In this document: positions 5,583 to 49,206 of the stretch, piece after piece
How the letters are laid out: each line of letters opens with the position of its first letter
Position numbering within the stretch: position 1 is the stretch's first letter
Origin: Terriglobia bacterium
GTDB taxonomy: Bacteria > Acidobacteriota > Terriglobia > Terriglobales > Acidobacteriaceae
DNA: 64,000 bases
NCBI GenBank assembly: GCA_963760265.1
Contig: CAVXCR010000029.1
Coordinates: 46,779 to 110,778, forward strand
Reading direction: 5' to 3'
Notes under the pieces: generated by a model
What the model was told of the DNA's origin: nothing
Databases searched by the model: none
Seen by the model: the letters and a program-made list of their open reading frames with translations, nothing else
Translations under genes and position numbers: made by a program

Positions 5583-5656
5583 TGCCCCCTCGTTCAATGG
5601 TAGGACAGCTGACTCTGGATCAGCATATCGGGGTTCGAATCCCTGGGGGGCAGCCA
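5583..5656 (+). tRNA. tRNA-Gln (anticodon CUG)
   Basis: Hand-folded cloverleaf: acceptor TGCCCCC/GGGGGCA, D arm GTTC-AATGGTA-GGAC, anticodon arm GCTGA-CTCTGGA-TCAGC, T arm CGGGG-TTCGAAT-CCCTG, then G-CCA. 74 nt. Confidence 0.9.
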
Positions 5657-17972: not shown

Positions 17973-19316
17973 ATGAAGGACAGCAAACGCACCAAGCTGC
18001 CTCGCGGCCTGCGCTGGAAAGCCGACTCCCCGTTCATCTGGTTCAGTTGGCGCAACGCGCGCGGCAAACAGCATCAGAAAAATACTGGGACCAATGACCC
18101 GGCGAAAGCCCTCGCCTTCAAGCTGGAGTTTCTTGCCAACGAGCACGAGGAAATCGCAGAGACTAAAACCCAGGCGGAGGACATGGGCAGGCTGCCACTG
18201 AGCCGCGTGGCGGAGCTCTACTTTGAGTGGAAAGCCGCCAGCAGCGCTGCCGTTACCATCGAACGCGAACGCCGCATTTTCAAGCCGGTCAGGAATTTCT
18301 TCGGCTCGCAGTTGCCGGTTAAGGCGATCAAGCTGCCGATGATGCAGCAGTATCAGCAGCAACGACGCCAGCACGTAAGCAAGAATATGAAGCAGCCCGT
18401 CACCGCGCGAACCGTGAACTACGAAATGCAACTGCTGCGCAACGTGCTCATGTTTGCCCATTGCTGGACGGGCGACCTGGCCGCGGGCTACAAGCCGCTG
18501 CGCCAGGTGAAGTCGCGCGCAGGCAAGTGCGCCGCCAAGGAACAGGTGATGACGATTATCGAGAAAGCGAAAGCAAACCCGTATTGGCAGCTGGCGATGT
18601 ATTGTGCCGCGGTCGCGATTGGCACTGGCTGCCGCGGCGGCGAGATTCGCCGGCTGCAGCTCGGCGACATTGATCTGGAGGGTGGCAAGCTGGCAATCCG
18701 GCGCGAGATCGCGAAGAACCGCAAGCAACGCGAACCGCGTCTGATGGCGCTCGCCGAATGGGGGCTGCGCCACCTGCTGGAGCGCGCTCACGCGCTGGGG
18801 GCAACTGAGCCTCAGCATTACCTGTTGCCGCTTCAGCTAACGCAGTCGCGCTATTACAACAAAGAGAAGGACGAGAAATGGGACCTGATCCGGCCCATGG
18901 CTTCCTGGACGCGCTCCTGGAGAAGGCTGGTGGCCGAATGCGGCATGAGTGGATTTCGTTTCCACGATCTCCGGCACACGTTTCGCACTTGGGGCGCCGA
19001 AGCGGGCGTGCCGCTGGAAGTGATGATGGCACAGCTGGGGCACATGGACCGCGAAACGTCCCTGGAGTACGTGCACATCCAGCAGCATGCCATGGAGCGC
19101 GCCCAGCAGTTGATCGAGTCCGAGCAGAAAGAGATCCTGGCGATCGCGGAAGGGCGAAAGCGGATACTCCGGGCCCGCCATGGCACCAGAAGAGCGGCTG
19201 CGAAGCCGGTGGTTGCAGTGTCTACGGCACTCCACGCGCCTTCGATCCGGCTGGCCGACACTGCTCGCAAGGCCGGCCTTTCGGGGCGGCAACTGGCTGC
19301 TGCCCCGGGACAATAA
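17973..19316 (+). CDS. tyrosine recombinase/integrase (5' end adjacent to att copy 2)
   Basis: GCRGGEIRRL (Arg I), FHDLRHTFRTWGAEAG, LGHMDRETSLEYVHI. Confidence 0.9.
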   Translation: MKDSKRTKLPRGLRWKADSPFIWFSWRNARGKQHQKNTGTNDPAKALAFKLEFLANEHEEIAETKTQAEDMGRLPLSRVAELYFEWKAASSAAVTIERERRIFKPVRNFFGSQLPVKAIKLPMMQQYQQQRRQHVSKNMKQPVTARTVNYEMQLLRNVLMFAHCWTGDLAAGYKPLRQVKSRAGKCAAKEQVMTIIEKAKANPYWQLAMYCAAVAIGTGCRGGEIRRLQLGDIDLEGGKLAIRREIAKNRKQREPRLMALAEWGLRHLLERAHALGATEPQHYLLPLQLTQSRYYNKEKDEKWDLIRPMASWTRSWRRLVAECGMSGFRFHDLRHTFRTWGAEAGVPLEVMMAQLGHMDRETSLEYVHIQQHAMERAQQLIESEQKEILAIAEGRKRILRARHGTRRAAAKPVVAVSTALHAPSIRLADTARKAGLSGRQLAAAPGQ

Positions 19317-20928: not shown

Positions 20929-22863
20929 TTACGAATTGATACTACCGTCGCGTGCCGGAGGGCGCTGAAGCGGCACCGTGGCGGACTCTTTCACGAAATC
21001 TCGGCCACAGGTTCCGAGGTATTGCGGGTGTGGAACAGCGGTCGAAAGCATTTCCACAGGTATCAATTTCCCCTGTGCGAAGATTTTGTGCCGCCCATGC
21101 TTGTGATGCCAGGCCGCGAGCGATAGCGGGTGGAAGTTATGCTCGACGATCTGGCGCCATCCGGCGCCGTTGTAGGCGGAGAAGTCGATCTCCCCGTCCG
21201 GAGTGGCCACCGGCGTTGCCGAGGCCTGGGCATTGCTCGAATCGTAGTTAAACAGGTCTTGGAACCACTGGCCCTGAATTGTCATCCAAGTCCATTCACT
21301 CTCTTTACGCGTGACCTTGTGCCAGTCGGACCGGCTGCTGTCTAAGCAGCTCAACCCCTGGCGCACAATCTCTACAGCGTCCTTGGCGTGAAATCTGCTC
21401 GGCAATTCGCGAGGACGGATGTTCCTCGCCACTGCCAGTGCGAGCTGTACCTTTGTCAGCAGGGGTCCGCGCGCAGAATCGGTTATCACGGTTGCGTCCC
21501 TCGCAAACTGCTCGACGTCAAAGAACGAGAACAGCGGCACCACCTGCTTCGTGCGGCGGTTCACCAGCAACGGGCTCGAAATGCAGCAATCCGGGTGTGC
21601 GTCAGGGGAGACCACGCCCTTGGTCGCGTCGGGACCGTGCAACAGATCTACGATCCGCGATACCGCGGTGTAGACGGAAACCGGGACCCAATCTCTGAGA
21701 GGCTGCCAATCGAAGCATGCCTGCTCTTGAAGGTCTCGCACGAGGTGCGAAAGCGTGTAGCGGCGCTCGTACCGAGTTTCGTTATCGACCTGCTCGTCTC
21801 TGCCGGCGAACATGATCGGCTGGAAGAGCAACCCGTTTACCTTGTCGATGTGGCGGATCGCGAAATCAAGAATCGATCCGACCCCGTCGTTGTTGACCCC
21901 GTTGATTACGGTCACTTGGAGGGTAGTGCGCATGCCGGCTTCGGCGATGTTTTCGATCGCCTTCAGCTTCACCTCGAGCGAATTGCCGATATGGCGGTGC
22001 GTGTTATTTTGCTCGGTCGTGCCGTCGAACTGAAGGTAGACGCTGTGCAACCCAGCCTTTGCGGCTTGAGCCGCAAACGCACACTCCTGGGCAAACCGGA
22101 TTCCGTTCGTGGCGACGTGGAGGCGCTTAAATCCGAGGTCCGCTGCACAGCGCACCGCAGCAAGGAAATGCGGCGATAACGTCGGCTCGCCGCCAGAGAA
22201 GAGAATGTTTACCTCACGCTGCGGCTTGAACGACAACGCCCGCTCTAACGTCGACCGAATCTCGTCCAAGGTCAGCTCATTTACGTAAGCGAGCTGGTTT
22301 GCGTCCATGAAGCACGGATCGCATTTCATGTTGCAGCGATTGGTCAGATCGAACACGAGGAAGCTGCCGCGACCGAATCGTATTGTTGAGCAACCATGAT
22401 GGTGGACGGCAGCATCATCACGGCACCGGAAGTCCTGACCTTGGTAGAGGGACTCCATGCGCTTAAAGAAAGCAACGTTTTCAGATAGCAGGTCTTCGAA
22501 TGGCCCGTGTTTATCACAGATCTTTCGCATCAGAACGTGTCCGGCCTCCTCGACGATTTGTGCCTGAATTTGCTCATCGCCGGAATGAAAGGAATCGGTC
22601 CCGACCTTGGCGTTGAGCATTCGATCCCGTTTCTCGAGCACGCATTTCGGACAGAGGGAAGCCACGGATCTGGGGAGACCGAGCCGCAGGAAGGTTCGCT
22701 CGCTGCTCTTTAGCAATTTCGCCGGCGCCCATGATGGCTTCGGCTGCTGCGCTTGCGGTAGGCACCGATTAATGCCTTGCGCGATGCGCCAGGCAACATC
22801 AGCCACACGGACTGAGGATTTCCGGAGGGCATGTGAGAGCGGGAACGGGTTCTCTGCTGGCAT
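20929..22863 (-). CDS. large radical SAM protein with N-terminal Zn-ribbon and long C-terminal domain
   Basis: LCPKC near the N-terminus, the radical SAM cluster motif DLTNRCNMKCDPCF (CX3CX2C), and GGEPTL. 644 codons, in a visibly lower-G+C stretch. Confidence 0.85.
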   Translation of the reverse strand: MPAENPFPLSHALRKSSVRVADVAWRIAQGINRCLPQAQQPKPSWAPAKLLKSSERTFLRLGLPRSVASLCPKCVLEKRDRMLNAKVGTDSFHSGDEQIQAQIVEEAGHVLMRKICDKHGPFEDLLSENVAFFKRMESLYQGQDFRCRDDAAVHHHGCSTIRFGRGSFLVFDLTNRCNMKCDPCFMDANQLAYVNELTLDEIRSTLERALSFKPQREVNILFSGGEPTLSPHFLAAVRCAADLGFKRLHVATNGIRFAQECAFAAQAAKAGLHSVYLQFDGTTEQNNTHRHIGNSLEVKLKAIENIAEAGMRTTLQVTVINGVNNDGVGSILDFAIRHIDKVNGLLFQPIMFAGRDEQVDNETRYERRYTLSHLVRDLQEQACFDWQPLRDWVPVSVYTAVSRIVDLLHGPDATKGVVSPDAHPDCCISSPLLVNRRTKQVVPLFSFFDVEQFARDATVITDSARGPLLTKVQLALAVARNIRPRELPSRFHAKDAVEIVRQGLSCLDSSRSDWHKVTRKESEWTWMTIQGQWFQDLFNYDSSNAQASATPVATPDGEIDFSAYNGAGWRQIVEHNFHPLSLAAWHHKHGRHKIFAQGKLIPVEMLSTAVPHPQYLGTCGRDFVKESATVPLQRPPARDGSINS

Positions 22864-23094: not shown

Positions 23095-23737
23095 TCATGC
23101 CAAAAGGTAAGGCATCTCCCGCAGAAGAAACCGTTTAACCTCGTCCCACTCAAGCGATACCAGCATGTGGGGCATCGGGTCCTTTTCGGTATCCTCAAAA
23201 AACGTCAGTGACTTGAGAATGTGAAGCCTGTTGTACCGGGTTTGACTGTACTTTCGGTCAAAGAGTTCCAGGAGATCGCCAAGGCCGAACTGCCGGGCAC
23301 ACACGTAGAGGTCCACGAAATCGCGCTTGGTACCGCGACTCGCAATAGCGCTCACTTTCATGCACGCAATGTCGCGCGGATCAGCTATGGCAACATCAAG
23401 GAATCGGGTAGCGGGAAACAGCACGGGGTAATCGTAGCCAAGGAAACTCACCTTTGTCTTTTGGATCGTCGTATGCAGCGAATGCGGCGCTCTGGCGACA
23501 AGGGAAAACCCAGCCAACGCCTGGACACGCTGGAGGAGTGTTTCCTCATCGAAGAGATCGGCCGCAAAAAAGTCTAGATCCTGAGACAGCCGGTGGCCGA
23601 AGTGAAGGGCAAGCCCCGTCCCGCCGGCTGAGGTAAAAGCTGTCAAGCAGTCTGGCGTGAGAAAGGTTGCGGAGCGTTACTTCAGTGGAGGCGGTGATCA
23701 CCTCGCGGTGCCATACCCCAGATTCATGATTGGTCAT
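23095..23737 (-). pseudogene. AbiEii/AbiGii-type nucleotidyltransferase toxin, single-base frameshift near 23629
   Basis: Frame A ends ...HARLLDSFYL and frame B continues AGGTGLALHFGHRLSQDLDFF... Removing one base restores LLDSFYLAGGTGLALHFGHRLSQDLDFF. Confidence 0.75.
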
Positions 23738-28214: not shown

Positions 28215-29514
28215 ATCACTGCTGTCCGGCTAAAGGAGGAAGTGCCGACCGCAAGTGATGGGCAGAGGGTGAGTTGAGTCCGTTCCGGGCTTGCCGCGAT
28301 TTGAAAGCGAGGAGAGCAGACAATGGCTCATGAATCAGGGCCGCACCGTCTTCTCGCAATTGATCAGCTTCCTTCCCGACCGGGAGTTTCGCCGTTGTGT
28401 CGAGCGCTATCAGGGCGACATCCGGCTGCGAGGATTTTCCTGCTGGGATTAGTATCTGGCGATGGCCTTCGCGCAGTTGACCTATCGCGAGAGCCTGCGT
28501 GACATCGAGGCCTGTCTGGGTTCGATGCAGAGCAAGCTGTACCACCTGGGATTTCGCGGCAAGGTGGCGCGCTCGACGCTGGCCGACGCGAACGAATCTC
28601 ATGATTGGAGGATCTTCGCCGATTTCGCGCAGGTGTTGATTGGCATCGCCCGGCCGCTGCATGCTCGCGATCCGATGGGCGTCGATCTGCAGCAGAGTTT
28701 GTATGCTCTGGATTCGACCACGATCGACCTGTGCCTGTCGCTGTTTCCGTGGGCGAGGTTTCGCCGGCGCAAGGCCGCCGTCAAGATGCACACTCTGCTG
28801 GACCTGCACGGCAACATTCCCACGTTTATCCGCGTCACCAGCGGGGATGTGCATGATGTGAACCTCCTCGACGAGATCCTGCCGGAGGCGGGGGCCTTCT
28901 ACGTGATGGACCGGGGCTACATCGATTTTCAGCGGCTCTTCGTGTTTACGCTCAGCTCGGCCTTCTTTGTCGTGCGCACCAAGTCGAACGTGCTGCTCGA
29001 ACGGCGCTACTCGCATCCGGTGGACAAGAGCACGGGCGTGCGCTCGGATCAGACGGTGATTCTGGCGTCGTTCGAATCGGCCTCGGTCTATCCGGATGCG
29101 CTGCGGCGTGTGAGTTACTTCGACACGGAGACCAACCAGTGGCTGAAGTTCCTGACCAACAACTTCACGCTCCCGGCACTGACCATCGCGCAAATCTACA
29201 AGTGTCGCTGGCAGGTGGAACTCTTCTTCAAATGGATCAAGCAGCACCTGAGAATCAAGGCGTTCTATGGGACCAGCGAGAACGCGGTGAAGACCCAGAT
29301 CTGGATCGCGGTGTCGGTGTACGTGCTGGTGGCAATCGTGCGCAAGCGGTTGGAACTGAACGCCAGCTTGTATCAAATTCTACAGATTCTCAGCCTCACG
29401 CTTTTCGAGAAAACGCCCATTTTATGCGCCCTTCAGGCCATCGATGAGGACGCCAGTTTCGCCAAAAACGTCAACCAACTGATTCTCTTCGAGTTTTAAC
29501 CGGACAGCAGTGAT
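28215..29514 (+). mobile_element. IS4-family insertion sequence (~1.3 kb)
   Basis: Terminal inverted repeats ATCACTGCTGTCCGGCTAAA (28215-28234) and TTTAACCGGACAGCAGTGAT (29495-29514) match 19/20. A single DDE transposase frame lies inside. No clear target duplication was seen. Confidence 0.8.
28330..29499 (+). pseudogene. IS4-family DDE transposase with in-frame amber codon at 28450
   Basis: MNQGRTVFSQLISFLPDREFRRCVERYQGDIRLRGFSCWD-TAG-YLAMAFAQLTYRESLRDIE... and ...YKCRWQVELFFKWIKQHL... The TAG sits where related transposases have Gln (CAG). Confidence 0.8.
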
Positions 29515-32332: not shown

Positions 32333-34159
<1,827 letters not shown>

Positions 34160-37510: not shown

Positions 37511-37915
37511 ATGGTAACGGCAAGCGCATCGTGGACCGATGGGGAACGATTCGTAGGGGTCGCGAGCAGCGGGCACGCCATTGTCGTGGACGCCGCCAAG
37601 GACAAGACCGGACCGAGCCCGATGGAACTGGTGCTCATCGGCCTGTGCGGCTGCACCGCCAGCGATGTCGTCGGCATCCTGCGCAAGAAGCGCGAGCCGT
37701 TCACGCGCCTGGAGGTCAGCGCCGAGGCGGAGCGCGCGCCCGAGCCTCCGGCGGTCTACACCTCCATCAAATTGCGCTACCGCGTCGCCGGCAAGGTCTC
37801 GCGCAAGTCGGTCGAGGACGCGGTGCGCCTGTCCCAAGAGAAGTACTGTTCGGTCTCGCAAATGCTGGGCAAGACGGCGAGGATTACGTCGGAAATCGAG
37901 CTGCTTCCGGGGTGA
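37511..37915 (+). CDS. OsmC-family protein
   Basis: ...GPSPMELVLIGLCGCTASDVV...EKYCSVSQML... GAGGAG RBS. Confidence 0.85.
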   Translation: MVTASASWTDGERFVGVASSGHAIVVDAAKDKTGPSPMELVLIGLCGCTASDVVGILRKKREPFTRLEVSAEAERAPEPPAVYTSIKLRYRVAGKVSRKSVEDAVRLSQEKYCSVSQMLGKTARITSEIELLPG

Positions 37916-38025
37916 GTTCCTGCCCTCTCGGTGTGCTCGGCGCCTCGGCGGTGAATCCTTCCTGACTTGTGCATCCACAACGAAAATATTGCAGCTTCGA
38001 GGCGGCAAACTGCGTCTTAGGCTGC

Positions 38026-38262
38026 ATGCCGAAAAATGTCGTCATCTTCACGCAACCGGGTTGACCACCGTGCCGCACCGCCAAGGCCTACCTCTCGGCG
38101 AGAGGTATCGAGTACGAGGACCGCGATGTTTCCGTAGATGCGCAGGCGGTGAACGACCTGGTCCACAGGTACCAGAGCCGCTCGACGCCAACGCTCGTCA
38201 TTGGCGAAGAGGTGATGGTCGGATTCGATCCCGACCGCCTGGACGAGTTGATGCGCGACTAG
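38026..38262 (+). CDS. glutaredoxin/NrdH-like small redoxin with in-frame TGA at the first CxxC position (candidate selenoprotein, or a nonsense pseudogene)
   Basis: MPKNVVIFTQPG-TGA(38062)-PPCRTAKAYLSARGIEYEDRDV...SRSTPTLVIGEEVMVGFDPDRLDELMRD. Thioredoxin-fold landmarks (xPPC, TP cis-Pro, GF) are all in frame. 8-bp hairpin at 38089-38107. Confidence 0.6.
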
Positions 38263-38287
38263 CCGCGGATTTGGATGAGGGACACGG

Positions 38288-38317
38288 AGGCACGGTGTGA
38301 GCCGTGCCTTTTGTGTT
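38288..38317 (+). terminator. rho-independent terminator after the redoxin gene
   Basis: AGGCACGG-TGTGAG-CCGTGCCT followed by TTTGTGTT. Confidence 0.7.
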
Positions 38318-38475
38318 GAACGCGGTCGACGGCCGATGGTCGATGGTCGGCGGCCGCCCTCGCGTGCGCCGGTGGAAGCCGCCCGGGCCGGTGTGGCACA
38401 CGCGCCCCCGCGTGTGCGATCTGCTGCTCCCTAATTGCACACGCCCCGCTTCAGATAAACTGCAAACCATTGTCC

Positions 38476-39454
38476 ATGGCTGTGCCAGCACAAATCGAGA
38501 ACCGCGAATCGGCCACTCATGCCGCCCACCCCGTTCGCGGCTACGTGTTCATCGCGGCGGCGGCGTTGTGTTGGGGAATCTCGGCATCGCTGGGTCGAGC
38601 GGCGTTTACCGGCCGGCTGGTCACGGGGCAGGCGCTGCCGCCGATCGGACCGCTGATTCTGGCGCAGACGCGCGTCACGCTGGCCTTGTTCGTGCTCGCA
38701 CCCGTTCTGCTGGCGCGGCGGCAAGCGGCGGGACTGAAGATGTCGCGCGCCGACCTGGTGCGCGCGCTGCTGATCGGCGTCCTGGGCGTGGCGGCGTCGA
38801 ATTATTTCTATTACCTCGCGATCCAGAAGACCAACGTCGCCACCGCCATCATCCTGCAATACACCGCGCCGGTGTTGCGTACTGCTTTACATGGTGGCGC
38901 GCGGCGTGCAGAAGGCGACGGCCTCGCGCGTATTCTCCGTCGCGCTGGCGGTGGTGGGCAGCGCTCTCGCCATCGGCGCCGTGGGCACAGGCCAGTTCCG
39001 CATCAATCCGATCGGGGTAGCGGCGGGCATGGCGGCGGCGCTGTCGTTCGCCTACTACAACATTTTTATTCCGCCCCTGCTCAAGCGGCACGACCGTTGG
39101 AAGGTGCTGCTCTACATTCTCATCGGCTCGGCGCTGTGCTGGCTGGTGATCAACCCACCTTGGCGAATCATCGCCGGGCACTATTCGCGCGCGCAGTGGG
39201 CATTCCTGGCGGTGTTCTCGGTGACCTCGGTGCTGCTGCCGTTTTCGTTTTACATCGCAGGCTTGCAGCATCTGGATGCCACCCGCGCCATCGTGACCAG
39301 TTGCCTGGAGCCGGTGTTCTCCATCCTGATCGCCGCCATGACGCTGGGCGAACTGGTGCGGCCGGTGCAGGTGGTGGGAATCGTGGTGGTGCTGACGGCG
39401 ACGGTGCTGGTGCAACTCTCGGGGAAAGAGGAGATGGTCGAACCCATCGAATAG
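38476..39454 (+). pseudogene. EamA/DMT-family transporter, frame disrupted near 38878 (or assembly indel)
   Basis: ...YYLAIQKTNVATAIILQYTAPV in one frame, continued by (V)LLYMVARGVQKATASRVFSVALAV... in ORF 38891-39454. Confidence 0.75.
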
Positions 39455-39564: not shown

Positions 39565-40816
39565 TCAGTCCACAGCGTGCAGTTCCTTCCCCCTCGTTTC
39601 CGGCAGGAACACAACCGCTACGATCATCAGCAGGTACGCGGACAGGGAAAACGCGGCGATCGCAGCCCCCAGCGAGATGCGCACGCTGAGGTAGCCGACC
39701 AGAGCGGGGAACAGGGCGCCGATGCCGCGGCCGAAATTATAGGAAAAGCCCTGGCCGGAGCCGCGCACGCGGCTGGGGAAAAGTTCGGTCAGGAACGCTC
39801 CCATGGGGCCAAACGATCCCGAGGCAAAAAATCCCAGCGGAAATCCCAGCACCAGCATGACGTGGTTGCCGATGGGGAGATAGGTGTAGGCGGCGACGGC
39901 CACCAACGAGCACACGGCGAAGAGGATGAGCGTGCGCCGCCGGCCGAGCCGGTCCGTCAGCCAGGCGCTGACCATGTATCCGGCAAACGATCCCACGATC
40001 ACCACCAGCAGGTACGCGCCCGTATTCAGCACCGACAGGCCGCGCGCCGTCTTCAGGTAGGTGGGCAGCCAGGTGGTGATCGCGTAGTACCCGCCCTGCG
40101 CCCCGGTCGCCATCAGCGAGGTCAGCACCGTGACGCGCAGCAGCGAGGGCGAGAAAATTTCCAGGAACCGGCTGCCATCGCCGGATGCGGCCAATTCCAC
40201 CCGGGTGCGGCTATAGACCTCGGGCTCCGGCACGTAGCGCCGGATGTAAAAGACCAGCAGCGCCGGCAGGATCCCGACCCAGAACATCGCGCGCCACGCC
40301 AGTGTCGGCGGCAGGGCGGAAAACAGCACGGCATAGAAAATCGCCGCTATTCCCCACCCGATCGCCCATCCGCCCTGGACGGTGCCGACGGCCTTGCCGC
40401 GATGCTGGGCGCGGATGGTCTCACCCATCAACACCGAGCCGACCGCCCATTCGCCGCCAAATCCCAGCCCCTGGAGGCCGCGCGTGACCAGCAATTGCCA
40501 AAACGAATTGGTAAAGCCGCTGAGAAACGTGAACAGCGCGAACCAGGCAATGGTGATCTGCAGCACGCGGGCGCGTCCGTAGCGGTCGGCCAGCAAGTCC
40601 GGCGAGCCAGCCGCCGACGGCGGAGATGATCAGCGTGGCGGCGGCCAGAATCCCAGCGCGTCCTTTGCTGATATGCCACAGCGTAATCAGGGTCGGAATC
40701 GCGAAGCTGTACACCATGACGTCCATGCCGTCGAGCGCCCATCCGCCAAAGGTGGCGATGAGCGTGGAGCGCTCGTGGGGAGCGAGATCGAGGAGCCAGG
40801 GCTTGCGCGCGGGCAT
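39565..40816 (-). pseudogene. MFS transporter, frame disrupted at ~40597 (or assembly indel)
   Basis: MPARKPWLLDLAPHERSTLIATFGGWALDGMDV...SAVGGWLAG, then one extra base, then LLADRYGRARVLQITIAWFALFTFLSG... (ORF 39565-40596). Confidence 0.8.
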
Positions 40817-41083
40817 GGTGGCGGGATTATAGAGCCGGAGTGACAAATGCAGATTGACGATTGACGATTGAAAAAGATCAACACAGAGGGCGCGAAGGGA
40901 TCGCAGGGTTCGCATAAGTGCCGCGCCGCTGGCGCTCCCGCCAAGTTTCTCGCAGCCTACCCACCGCTGCCGCGGTGGGCTAACGAATGCCGCGCCTCCG
41001 GCGCTGCACACGCGAGGGCGCGTGTGCCACATCGTTCGTCTATTCAGTTGAATCAGCGTTTATCTGCGTGCATCAGCGGCTAA

Positions 41084-48060: not shown

Positions 48061-49108
48061 GTGAGCGACAAAAAGAGGATTGCCGTTGTCCCCGGCGACG
48101 GCATCGGCAAAGAAGTCATTGCCGAGGCGCTGAAGGTGGTGCGCGCCAGCGGAGCGCCGGTGGACCTGTACCGAGTTCGACTGGAGCGCCGATCGCTACC
48201 TGCGCGATGGCACCACCATCCCAGCCGACGGATTCGAGATGCTGGCGCACGATTTCGACGCCATCCTGGTCGGCGCCCTCGGCGATCCGCGCGTTCCCAG
48301 CAACATCCATGCCAAGGAAATCCTGCTCGGCATGCGCTTCAAAATGGACCTCTACGCCAACGTCCGCCCGGTGCGCCTGCTCGACGAAAGTCTCTGCCCG
48401 CTCAAGAACGTGAAGCCCGAGGACGTGAACTTCACCGTCATTCGCGAGAACACCGAGGGCGTGTACATGGACATGGGCGGTACGTTCAAGCAGGGCACGC
48501 CCGATGAGGTCGCGACGCAAGAGGACATCAACACGCGCAAGGGCGTGGAGCGCGTGATCCGCTTCGCGTTCGACTATGCGCGGCGCCACGCGCGCAAGAA
48601 GGTGCTGATGGCGGACAAGTCCAACGTCATGACCTACGCCGGGGGGCTCTGGCAGCGCGTCTTCAAGGAAGTCGCGACAGAATTTCCGGAGATCGCGGCG
48701 CAGCACATGTTCGTGGACGCGCTCTGCCCTGCGATGGTGCGCGAGCCGCGGCAGTTCGAGGTGATCGTCACCAACAACATGTTCGGCGACATCCTCACCG
48801 ACCTTGCCGCCGCGCTGCAGGGCGGGCTGGGCATGGCCGCAAGCGGAAACATTCATCCCGGCCGCACGTCCATGTTCGAGCCGGTGCACGGGTCGGCGCC
48901 GCTGCTGGCAGGAAAGAACGTGGCCAACCCGCTGGGTGCCATCCAGAGCGCGGCCATGATGCTGGCACACCTCGGACTCCAGGAGCATGCCGGCCGCATC
49001 GATGCCGCGGTGCTGGCGGCGGTGCGGGCACAGCAGTTGACCCAGGACGTCGGCGGAAACATGGGCACGCGAGAGGTCGGAGATTGGGTGGCGAAGCGGG
49101 TGAGCTGA
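48061..49108 (+). pseudogene. isopropylmalate/tartrate dehydrogenase-family enzyme, frame disrupted near 48169 (or assembly indel)
   Basis: VSDKKRIAVVPGDGIGKEVIAEALKVVRASGAPVDL, then a frame change, then TEFDWSADRYLRDGTTIPADGFEMLAHDFDAILVGALGDPRVP...[12 protein letters not shown]... Confidence 0.8.
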
Positions 49109-49118
49109 TCCACAATTC

Positions 49119-49206
49119 AGTCCCGCAGGGACGGCAGTACTTAGCCCGGCACGTCAGTGCCGGGATTGCATGCATTAGAAATGGTCGGAGTCCCGTAGGG
49201 ACGGCA
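49119..49206. repeat. cluster of three short GC hairpins
   Basis: AGTCCCGCAGGGACGGCA (49119), CCCGGCACGTCAGTGCCGGG (49145) and AGTCCCGTAGGGACGGCA (49189). The first and third are near-identical direct repeats. Confidence 0.65.

Follow-up and report, generated by a model that had tools for sequence, protein, structure and literature searches.

We analysed a 64,000-nucleotide (nt) stretch of contig CAVXCR010000029.1 (positions 46,779 to 110,778, assembly GCA_963760265.1) from a Terriglobia bacterium, hereafter called the window. The subject is a short candidate selenoprotein gene encoding a glutaredoxin-like redoxin, in which a TGA codon occupies the place of the first active-site residue and is followed by a hairpin inside the coding sequence (CDS). 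The features of the gene itself are as follows.

38026..38262, forward strand: CDS of a putative selenocysteine (Sec)-containing glutaredoxin-like redoxin, 78 residues, active site U13-P-P-C16 (frame shared by 50 distinct orthologues; PF00462)
38062..38064, forward strand: in-frame UGA, presumed Sec codon, residue 13 and first position of UxxC (cross-species alignment)
38089..38107, forward strand: hairpin of the bacterial Sec insertion sequence (bSECIS) type within the CDS, 8-bp stem, GGC apical loop at 38097-38099 (bSECIS rules, covariation)

The frame translates as MPKNVVIFTQPG, the TGA, PPCRTAKAYLSARGIEYEDRDVSVDAQAVNDLVHRYQSRSTPTLVIGEEVMVGFDPDRLDELMRD and a closing stop, and around the TGA it reads MPKNVVIFTQPG-TGA-PPCRTAKAYLSARG…LMRD-TAG. 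The closing stop is the TAG at 38260-38262 and the TGA is the sole interruption before it. An initial annotation, made from the sequence alone, had described this 78-codon redoxin frame with its lone TGA and had pointed out that the open reading frame (ORF) list misses the gene. Both statements hold, as the translated frame matches a glutaredoxin profile (PF00462, below) and the list has no entry of at least 40 amino acids (aa) in this frame. TGA is otherwise the commonest normal stop in the window (16/33 long ORFs, including that of the adjacent OsmC gene) and genome-wide reassignment of TGA (code 4 or 25) was therefore ruled out.

Protein family and conservation of the TGA

With cysteine (Cys) put in place of the TGA-encoded residue, the window protein matched the Glutaredoxin profile PF00462 (E 1.1e-14, 54.9 bits vs a cutoff of 22.9). 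The top NCBIfam model was that of the YruB family, TIGR02196, for which the Cys-substituted protein scored 87.8 bits, 0.75 bit short of the cutoff of 88.55. The score for the classical GRX_bact model TIGR02181 was 43.5 bits, below its cutoff of 90, and the active site is of the CPPC type and not the CPYC type. The NrdH models also remained below their cutoffs (TIGR02194, 46.6 vs 85.75 bits; PRK10329, 27.1 vs 131 bits). NrdH-redoxins are marked by C-[VM]-Q-C at the active site and by WSGFRP; where these motifs would stand, the window protein shows UPPC and VGFDPD. The label 'glutaredoxin/NrdH-like' given initially was thus retained for its glutaredoxin fold and dropped for NrdH, both NrdH scores being far below cutoff. 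By sequence, the redoxin is closest to the YruB/BC3987 type of CPPC redoxins and to cGrx1 of Clostridium oremlandii.

Sequence matches in the PDB were 3ZIJ (E 4e-17) and 7C10 (E 2e-13). An AlphaFold2 model of a Cys-containing relative, P0001, which is 74-76% identical to the window protein, had a predicted local distance difference test (pLDDT) score of 96.2 and the topology b1-a1-b2-a2-b3-b4-a3. Residue 13 of this model stands immediately before helix a1, which starts at residue 14, and its structural neighbours were 3ZIJ/3ZIT (template modelling (TM) score 0.88-0.91) and 7C10 (TM 0.90). The window protein retains the layout Thr9-Gln10-x-x-U13-P-P-C16, and T54, P55, G66 and F67 of the T-P and G-F-D-P motifs are invariant. 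Together with the PF00462 match, the model agrees with the in-frame thioredoxin-fold landmarks proposed from the sequence (beta1, the xPPC site, the TP cis-proline and GF).

Sec-Grx (PF00462, UxxC) is an experimentally verified bacterial selenoprotein family (PMC13188914). cGrx1 of C. oremlandii is a native selenoprotein with a U(C)PxC site, and 7C10 is the crystal structure of its Cys form (PMC7642778). Aligned with two known Sec-Grx sequences, the window protein is ~30% identical to them and its residue 13 falls in their Sec column. It shares with this family (cGrx1; Geobacter sulfurreducens WP_010943784.1) the small glutaredoxin fold, Sec as the first residue of U-P-x-C at the N-terminus of helix a1, and an in-frame hairpin after the UGA. 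However, it is only ~30-35% identical to cGrx1 and the Geobacter protein, has UPPC rather than UPWC or UPYC, and comes from an aerobic soil Terriglobales lineage with an OsmC-Grx-EamA gene context, whereas cGrx1 has been proposed to reduce the selenoprotein MsrA. The best sequence and structural match was BC3987 (3ZIJ/3ZIT) of Bacillus cereus, an 8.7-kDa CPPC thioredoxin-like protein that uses the conserved threonine of [ST]-x3-C-x-x-C (PMC3720550). Both proteins are 78 aa long and have an x-P-P-C site and the [ST]-x3-C-x-x-C threonine followed by Gln; BC3987 is 47-49% identical to the modelled relative P0001. In contrast to the window protein, BC3987 and the described YruB-family members contain Cys and not Sec, and the Bacillaceae homologues lack a SECIS, with 3/8 in-register pairs at the hairpin position. 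The 'Uxx-star' Grx-like (seleno)proteins (NF041212, NF041114, NF041211) are related to YruB and gave partial profile matches, all under their cutoffs (NF041212, 59.3 vs 66; subfamilies, 30.1 vs 72 and 43.6 vs 100). These families have UxxT and two Sec residues (PMC13188914), unlike the UPPC site and single Sec codon of the window protein.

Orthologues were collected from species-representative genomes and a metagenome scan, which gave 50 distinct TGA-form and 35 distinct Cys-form genes. A TGA at exactly the same codon was found in 19/19 of the closest species-representative genomes, all of them Terriglobales or Terriglobia metagenome-assembled genomes. Across the 50 unique TGA-form genes the entropy of this column was zero, over protein identities from 95% down to ~57-60%. 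More distant Acidobacteriota, Bacillaceae, Chloroflexota and a sister clade carried TGT or TGC at this column, and the TGA aligns both with Cys codons and with the Sec of known Sec-Grx. The initial annotation had named TGC or TGT in close relatives, together with an unconserved hairpin, as the pattern of a pseudogene; instead, every one of the 50 distinct orthologues of the clade has the TGA, and the hairpin is kept.

Upstream of the TGA, most variation falls on third codon positions, the pattern of coding sequence: the first, second and third positions of the eight codons 5' of the TGA had entropies of 0.51, 0.20 and 1.32 bits, respectively. All 12 codons preceding the TGA are constrained at the amino-acid level, with FTQPG nearly invariant. 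Compared with its relatives, the gene is free of indels. The relative L122 (GCA_049696215.1), 97-99% identical, differs from the window gene by 12 nt, of which 10 are synonymous and 2 conservative, and there were zero differences from the TGA to the hairpin. Both sides of the UGA thus evolve as one constrained reading frame.

Database annotation of this gene is largely truncated. Nearly all of the closest database proteins (79-95% identity) are ~60-aa calls beginning after the TGA site with "M/V-KAYLSARG…", and full-length calls of 78 aa are at most 76% identical to the window protein. Fragments of 51-61 aa include P0010, P0013, P0018, P0048, P0053 and P0103, one of them named 'glutaredoxin family protein', and in L122 (JBAVTN010000717.1) there is no gene call at the redoxin locus. 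Such short calls, numerous in the databases and starting immediately behind the TGA, would be expected if the locus made two products, a 12-residue peptide ending at the TGA and a truncated redoxin from an internal start. We consider this highly improbable. The first in-frame start after the TGA in the window leaves only 37 residues, the fold needs strand b1 and the first residue of the active site, neither of which is present in the 60-aa calls, and the constraint on the 12 upstream codons, FTQPG included, lies at the amino-acid level.

Other TGA-bearing or disrupted copies were seen among the loci collected. Two small Grx genes on Deltaproteobacteria-type contigs (L030, L116) have a TGA at the same column within TPT-U-PYC or TPT-U-PHC, followed by a different downstream structure; this separate lineage probably belongs to the known deltaproteobacterial Sec-Grx group. 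In three further loci (L023, L113, L114) the N-terminal third is out of frame (e.g. NPG, a stop and then LFLPNPIARPVR) and the C-terminal part is intact; these are frameshifted copies or assembly indels.

The hairpin downstream of the TGA

The hairpin at 38089-38107 has the sequence TACCTCTC-GGC-GAGAGGTA, with a perfect stem and exactly 32 nt from the UGA to the first loop base. The bSECIS model (PMC13188914) describes a loop of 3-9 nt on a 4-16-bp upper stem, a G in the first two loop positions, a UGA-to-loop distance of 16-37 nt and a minimum free energy (MFE) of -7.5 kcal/mol or lower. The window hairpin satisfies all four rules (GGC loop, 8 bp, 32 nt, -9.9 kcal/mol), and the 8-bp stem, ~32-nt distance and SECIS-range spacing read from the sequence in the first place were accordingly confirmed. 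Searches of Rfam at the gathering threshold over the whole window, at E <= 10 over 37900-38400 and at E <= 1 over 38300-38520 gave nothing for this hairpin beyond two noise-level matches. In its position inside the CDS 3' of the UGA and its small apical loop opening with G-G, the hairpin resembles the bSECIS of E. coli fdhF. It differs in being short (8 bp), in the 24 nt that separate it from the UGA, which the fdhF-type element follows directly, and in having no evident bulged U or lower stem; binding by SelB is predicted.

Conservation of the helix was assessed in a gap-free alignment of 20 sequences. The eight base pairs were formed in 95.6% of cells, in comparison to 37-61% when the pairing was slid by 1-3 columns. 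Compensatory double changes occurred in 4/8 pairs (U·A to G·C, C·G to A·U, C·G to U·A and A·U to U·A), loop bases 1 and 2 (G42, G43) were invariant G-G, and RNAalifold independently found the inner six pairs.

The hairpin was also strongly associated with the TGA forms. The best rule-compliant hairpin lay at 32 nt and had a 3-nt GGN loop in 48/50 Sec forms vs 2/35 Cys forms, and a hairpin of at least six in-register pairs was contained in the 60-nt MFE fold of 42/50 and 2/35, respectively. All four bSECIS rules were satisfied by 22/50 Sec forms and 1/35 Cys forms; the Cys forms retain 3-6 of the 8 in-register pairs. Third-position entropy in the Sec forms was lower in the hairpin codons than in the rest of the gene (0.67 vs 1.36), and this was not the case in the Cys forms (1.46 vs 1.27). 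Furthermore, the first loop G is the third base of a Ser/Glu/Ala codon; this base is G in every Sec form, whereas it varies freely in the Cys forms. These comparative patterns indicate that the hairpin is kept by selection at the RNA level, and only in UGA forms.

This pattern bears directly on the alternative that a TGC/TGT-to-TGA nonsense change or a sequencing error in the source genome or assembly turned an ordinary Cys-glutaredoxin into a pseudogene. Lesions of other genes are present nearby, where 1-nt insertions split the EamA and major facilitator superfamily (MFS) genes, and no Sec machinery was found in the window. The family also contains one real case: the Cys-clade orthologue L096 (1497-1605) has a TGA at the active-site codon together with an in-frame TAG where its relatives have Tyr, and no hairpin. 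Whether a true pseudogene or a contig full of errors, L096 serves as a negative control for what a nonsense lesion looks like in this family. The window gene presents the opposite picture: its TGA recurs in 50 distinct genes that come from metagenomes and independent assemblies, there is coding-type constraint on either side of it and no indels, and a covarying hairpin is conserved only in TGA forms. Identities down to 57-60% also exclude one recently spread non-functional allele. A pseudogene or error at this locus is therefore extremely unlikely. Of the 'other nonsense lesions' mentioned for the window, those checked are frameshifting 1-nt insertions and not nonsense changes.

Gene neighbourhood and probable exchange between Sec and Cys

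The redoxin gene is flanked by the following features.

37511..37915, forward strand: OsmC/YhfA-family gene, conserved upstream neighbour with an ordinary TGA stop (Pfam OsmC 2.7e-19; PRK10738 113.7 bits)
38289..38318, forward strand: hairpin resembling an intrinsic terminator, GGCACGG-TGTGAG-CCGTGCC with TTTTGTGTTG behind it, 27 nt downstream of the redoxin stop

The terminator search placed the stem at 38294-38308, and direct reading of the sequence gave a longer 7-bp stem. The position of the gene after an OsmC-family gene and before its own terminator, as first described, was thus corroborated by the Pfam match and by the hairpin with its T-run at ~38289-38318. Neither a terminator nor a sigma-70 promoter was found in the 110-nt spacer between OsmC and the redoxin gene. 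The gene order OsmC-Grx-EamA, often followed by an MFS gene, is common to TGA and Cys loci, and because this synteny is conserved in both, the comparison of Sec and Cys forms is one between orthologues.

In a neighbour-joining tree of the redoxins with the U/C column masked, the Sec forms made up one clade with three Cys lineages nested inside it, and the sister clade was all-Cys. The motif next to the active site also differed, being QPG-U-PPC in the Sec clade vs QPD-C-PPC in the all-Cys sister clade. The nested Cys lineages look, by sequence, like stages of Sec-to-Cys reversion. One (L037, 517-753) has TGC and a perfect hairpin, on a 798-bp contig at 1.27× coverage where a read error is possible; a second (L056/L041) has TGT and a weakened hairpin; and in the third (L038/L039), also with TGT, the hairpin was lost through synonymous changes that left the peptide nearly unchanged. 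The sequences fit a history in which Cys gave way to Sec once, at the base of the clade, and was regained a few times later in Sec-to-Cys reversions with decaying SECIS remnants. A pattern of Sec/Cys exchange with conversion and reversion has been described for other selenoprotein families, along with a Cys-to-Sec trend in thiol oxidoreductases (PMC1794560). Since the sister clade is all-Cys, the conversion in the Terriglobales redoxin was evidently independent of that in Sec-Grx such as cGrx1.

Several further observations were made in the window. The EamA gene (38470-39454, forward strand) is split into two frames by a 1-nt insertion at ~38875 (GGTG-T-TGCG) relative to the intact orthologue in L001, and this split is either a real frameshift or an assembly error. 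The N-terminus of the MFS gene (39565 to ~41030, reverse strand) is out of frame, with the Pfam match starting at profile position 55 and a 1-nt insertion at ~40594 relative to L001; its N-terminal part reads in the ORF at 40421-41032 (reverse strand). An isocitrate/isopropylmalate dehydrogenase ORF (48239-49108, forward strand) matches Iso_dh only from profile position 63, its N-terminus being missing or frameshifted, possibly through another indel of the EamA/MFS kind. Between the redoxin terminator and EamA is a palindromic, GC-rich hairpin (38395-38417), GCACACGCG-N5-CGCGTGTGC. A second copy in the opposite orientation (41007-41029) stands right after an Acido-Lenti-1 RNA, and the palindrome had no Rfam match. 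The two copies of Acido-Lenti-1 (RF01687; 40960-41005, forward strand, and 49119-49164, reverse strand; 56.1 and 59.9 bits vs a gathering threshold of 37) are consistent with an acidobacterial origin. Finally, a region of ~5600-31000, which begins just after a tRNA-Gln gene (5583-5656), has lower third-position GC and many ORFs without Pfam matches. It includes a tyrosine integrase (17973-19316), a DDE transposase (28462-29499), an AbiEii toxin fragment (23095-23646) and a radical-SAM protein (20929-22863), and is probably an integrated mobile element.

Decoding, function and significance

Taken from sequence comparison, the locus is very probably a genuine selenoprotein gene encoding a 78-residue thioredoxin-fold redoxin of the YruB/BC3987/cGrx1 type. 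During translation the hairpin would act as a bacterial SECIS. SelB·GTP·Sec-tRNA(Sec) would bind its apical loop and deliver selenocysteine to the UGA in the ribosomal A site, and translation would then run on to the TAG at 38260. In the finished protein, U13 would stand at the N-terminus of helix a1, and its selenolate is predicted to be the nucleophile that attacks disulfides, sulfenates or selenenylsulfides of substrates. C16 would then resolve the intermediate, with Thr9 and Gln10, both conserved, tuning its thiolate as they do in BC3987. BC3987-class proteins are generally reduced by thioredoxin reductase (PMC3720550) and, by analogy with BC3987, the oxidised Se-S form would probably be re-reduced by thioredoxin reductase rather than by glutathione. 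More speculatively, the OsmC/YhfA protein and the redoxin may form a peroxide or thiol stress module whose genes are probably co-transcribed and whose products are possibly redox partners, as suggested by their invariant adjacency and the lack of a detected terminator or promoter in the 110-nt spacer.

Some results weigh against the selenoprotein interpretation. Those on the hairpin concern its spacing, its stability and the sources of its conservation. The 32-nt spacing is close to the upper limit of the 16-37-nt range, and the uninterrupted stem alone reaches -7.5 kcal/mol in only 22/50 Sec forms. Folded singly, the 71-nt region 38055-38125 was not more stable than its shuffles (z = +0.59); single-sequence folding being uninformative here, the hairpin was judged by comparison. 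In that comparison 0/500 shuffles reached the observed covariation score, with a shuffle control that ignores relatedness among the sequences. The hairpin also overlaps the conserved peptide AYLSARG, so its conservation is partly protein constraint, and it was for this reason that synonymous sites were tested.

Further points against concern decoding and function. No selA, selB, selD or tRNA-Sec was found in the window (ARAGORN, Rfam, and Pfam on ~40 ORFs), and we infer the Sec machinery of the source organism only from literature at the level of the order. Incorporation of selenium at the UGA is likewise deduced from sequence, and the links to thioredoxin reductase and OsmC come only from homology and synteny.

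Searches beyond the gene itself added the following. A search of the 6-kb loci L001-L019 that covered tRNAs only detected no tRNA-Sec. The translational GTPase encoded at 32333-34159 is BipA and not SelB, as its BipA_C and EFG_C domains show. A screen of the window for other in-frame TGAs with coding-like flanks, based on third-position GC, gave three weak candidates (29795, 62449, 63615), none convincing; this screen is insensitive and missed the redoxin gene. In the literature, Acidobacteria are credited with three selenoprotein families (PMC1794560), and Occallatibacter riparius, a cultured member of the Terriglobales, is listed as using Sec; its three selenoproteins are FdhA, an AhpD-like and a deiodinase-like protein, with no Sec-Grx among them (PMC12013277).

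The residue inserted at the UGA is not distinguishable from sequence data alone, which leaves room for a reading in which the codon is recoded not, or not only, as Sec. A selC*-type tRNA-Cys acting via SelB, or an acidobacterial allo-tRNA serving as opal suppressor, would then place Cys or Ser at position 13. Allo-tRNAs with a possible nonsense-suppressor function have been reported in Acidobacteria, and a selC* tRNA-Cys that mimics tRNA-Sec in other phyla (PMC5389517). However, selC* was reported in Firmicutes, Thermodesulfobacteria, Nitrospirae and Proteobacteria and not in Acidobacteria (PMC5389517), and a general opal suppressor would need no position-specific hairpin and would misread the normal TGA stops (16/33). 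The codon also stands where UxxC redoxins canonically carry Sec, among characterised proteins the nearest relative is a native selenoprotein, and the neighbouring D-to-G shift that accompanies the codon suggests adaptation to a different residue and not an alternative spelling of Cys. We regard such recoding as improbable. It is similarly a long shot that the UGA is conditional, being read as Sec when selenium is available and as Cys when it is scarce, by means of a tRNA-Sec-like tRNA-Cys or a mis-acylated tRNA-Sec. If this were so, the redoxin would be a facultative selenoprotein that keeps an OsmC-linked peroxide/thiol defence working in selenium-poor soils.

Sec-containing glutaredoxins with UxxC are already known (PMC13188914). 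What is new, and well supported by the comparisons above, is a clade-wide member in aerobic soil Terriglobales with a BC3987/YruB-type UPPC site, its own conserved SECIS, a fixed OsmC context and systematic mis-annotation. A conserved gene of widespread soil bacteria has thus been systematically missed or truncated, and with the alignment and the SECIS description annotation pipelines could recover it. Selenoprotein use in thiol-redox defence is usually tied to anaerobes such as Deltaproteobacteria and Clostridia. A selenoprotein at this locus would extend it to aerobic soil Terriglobales and would imply a selenium requirement for an OsmC-linked stress module. The family would also offer a natural series for the study of Sec/Cys exchange, with one conversion coupled to a D-to-G change and revertants in which the SECIS is intact, weakened or lost.

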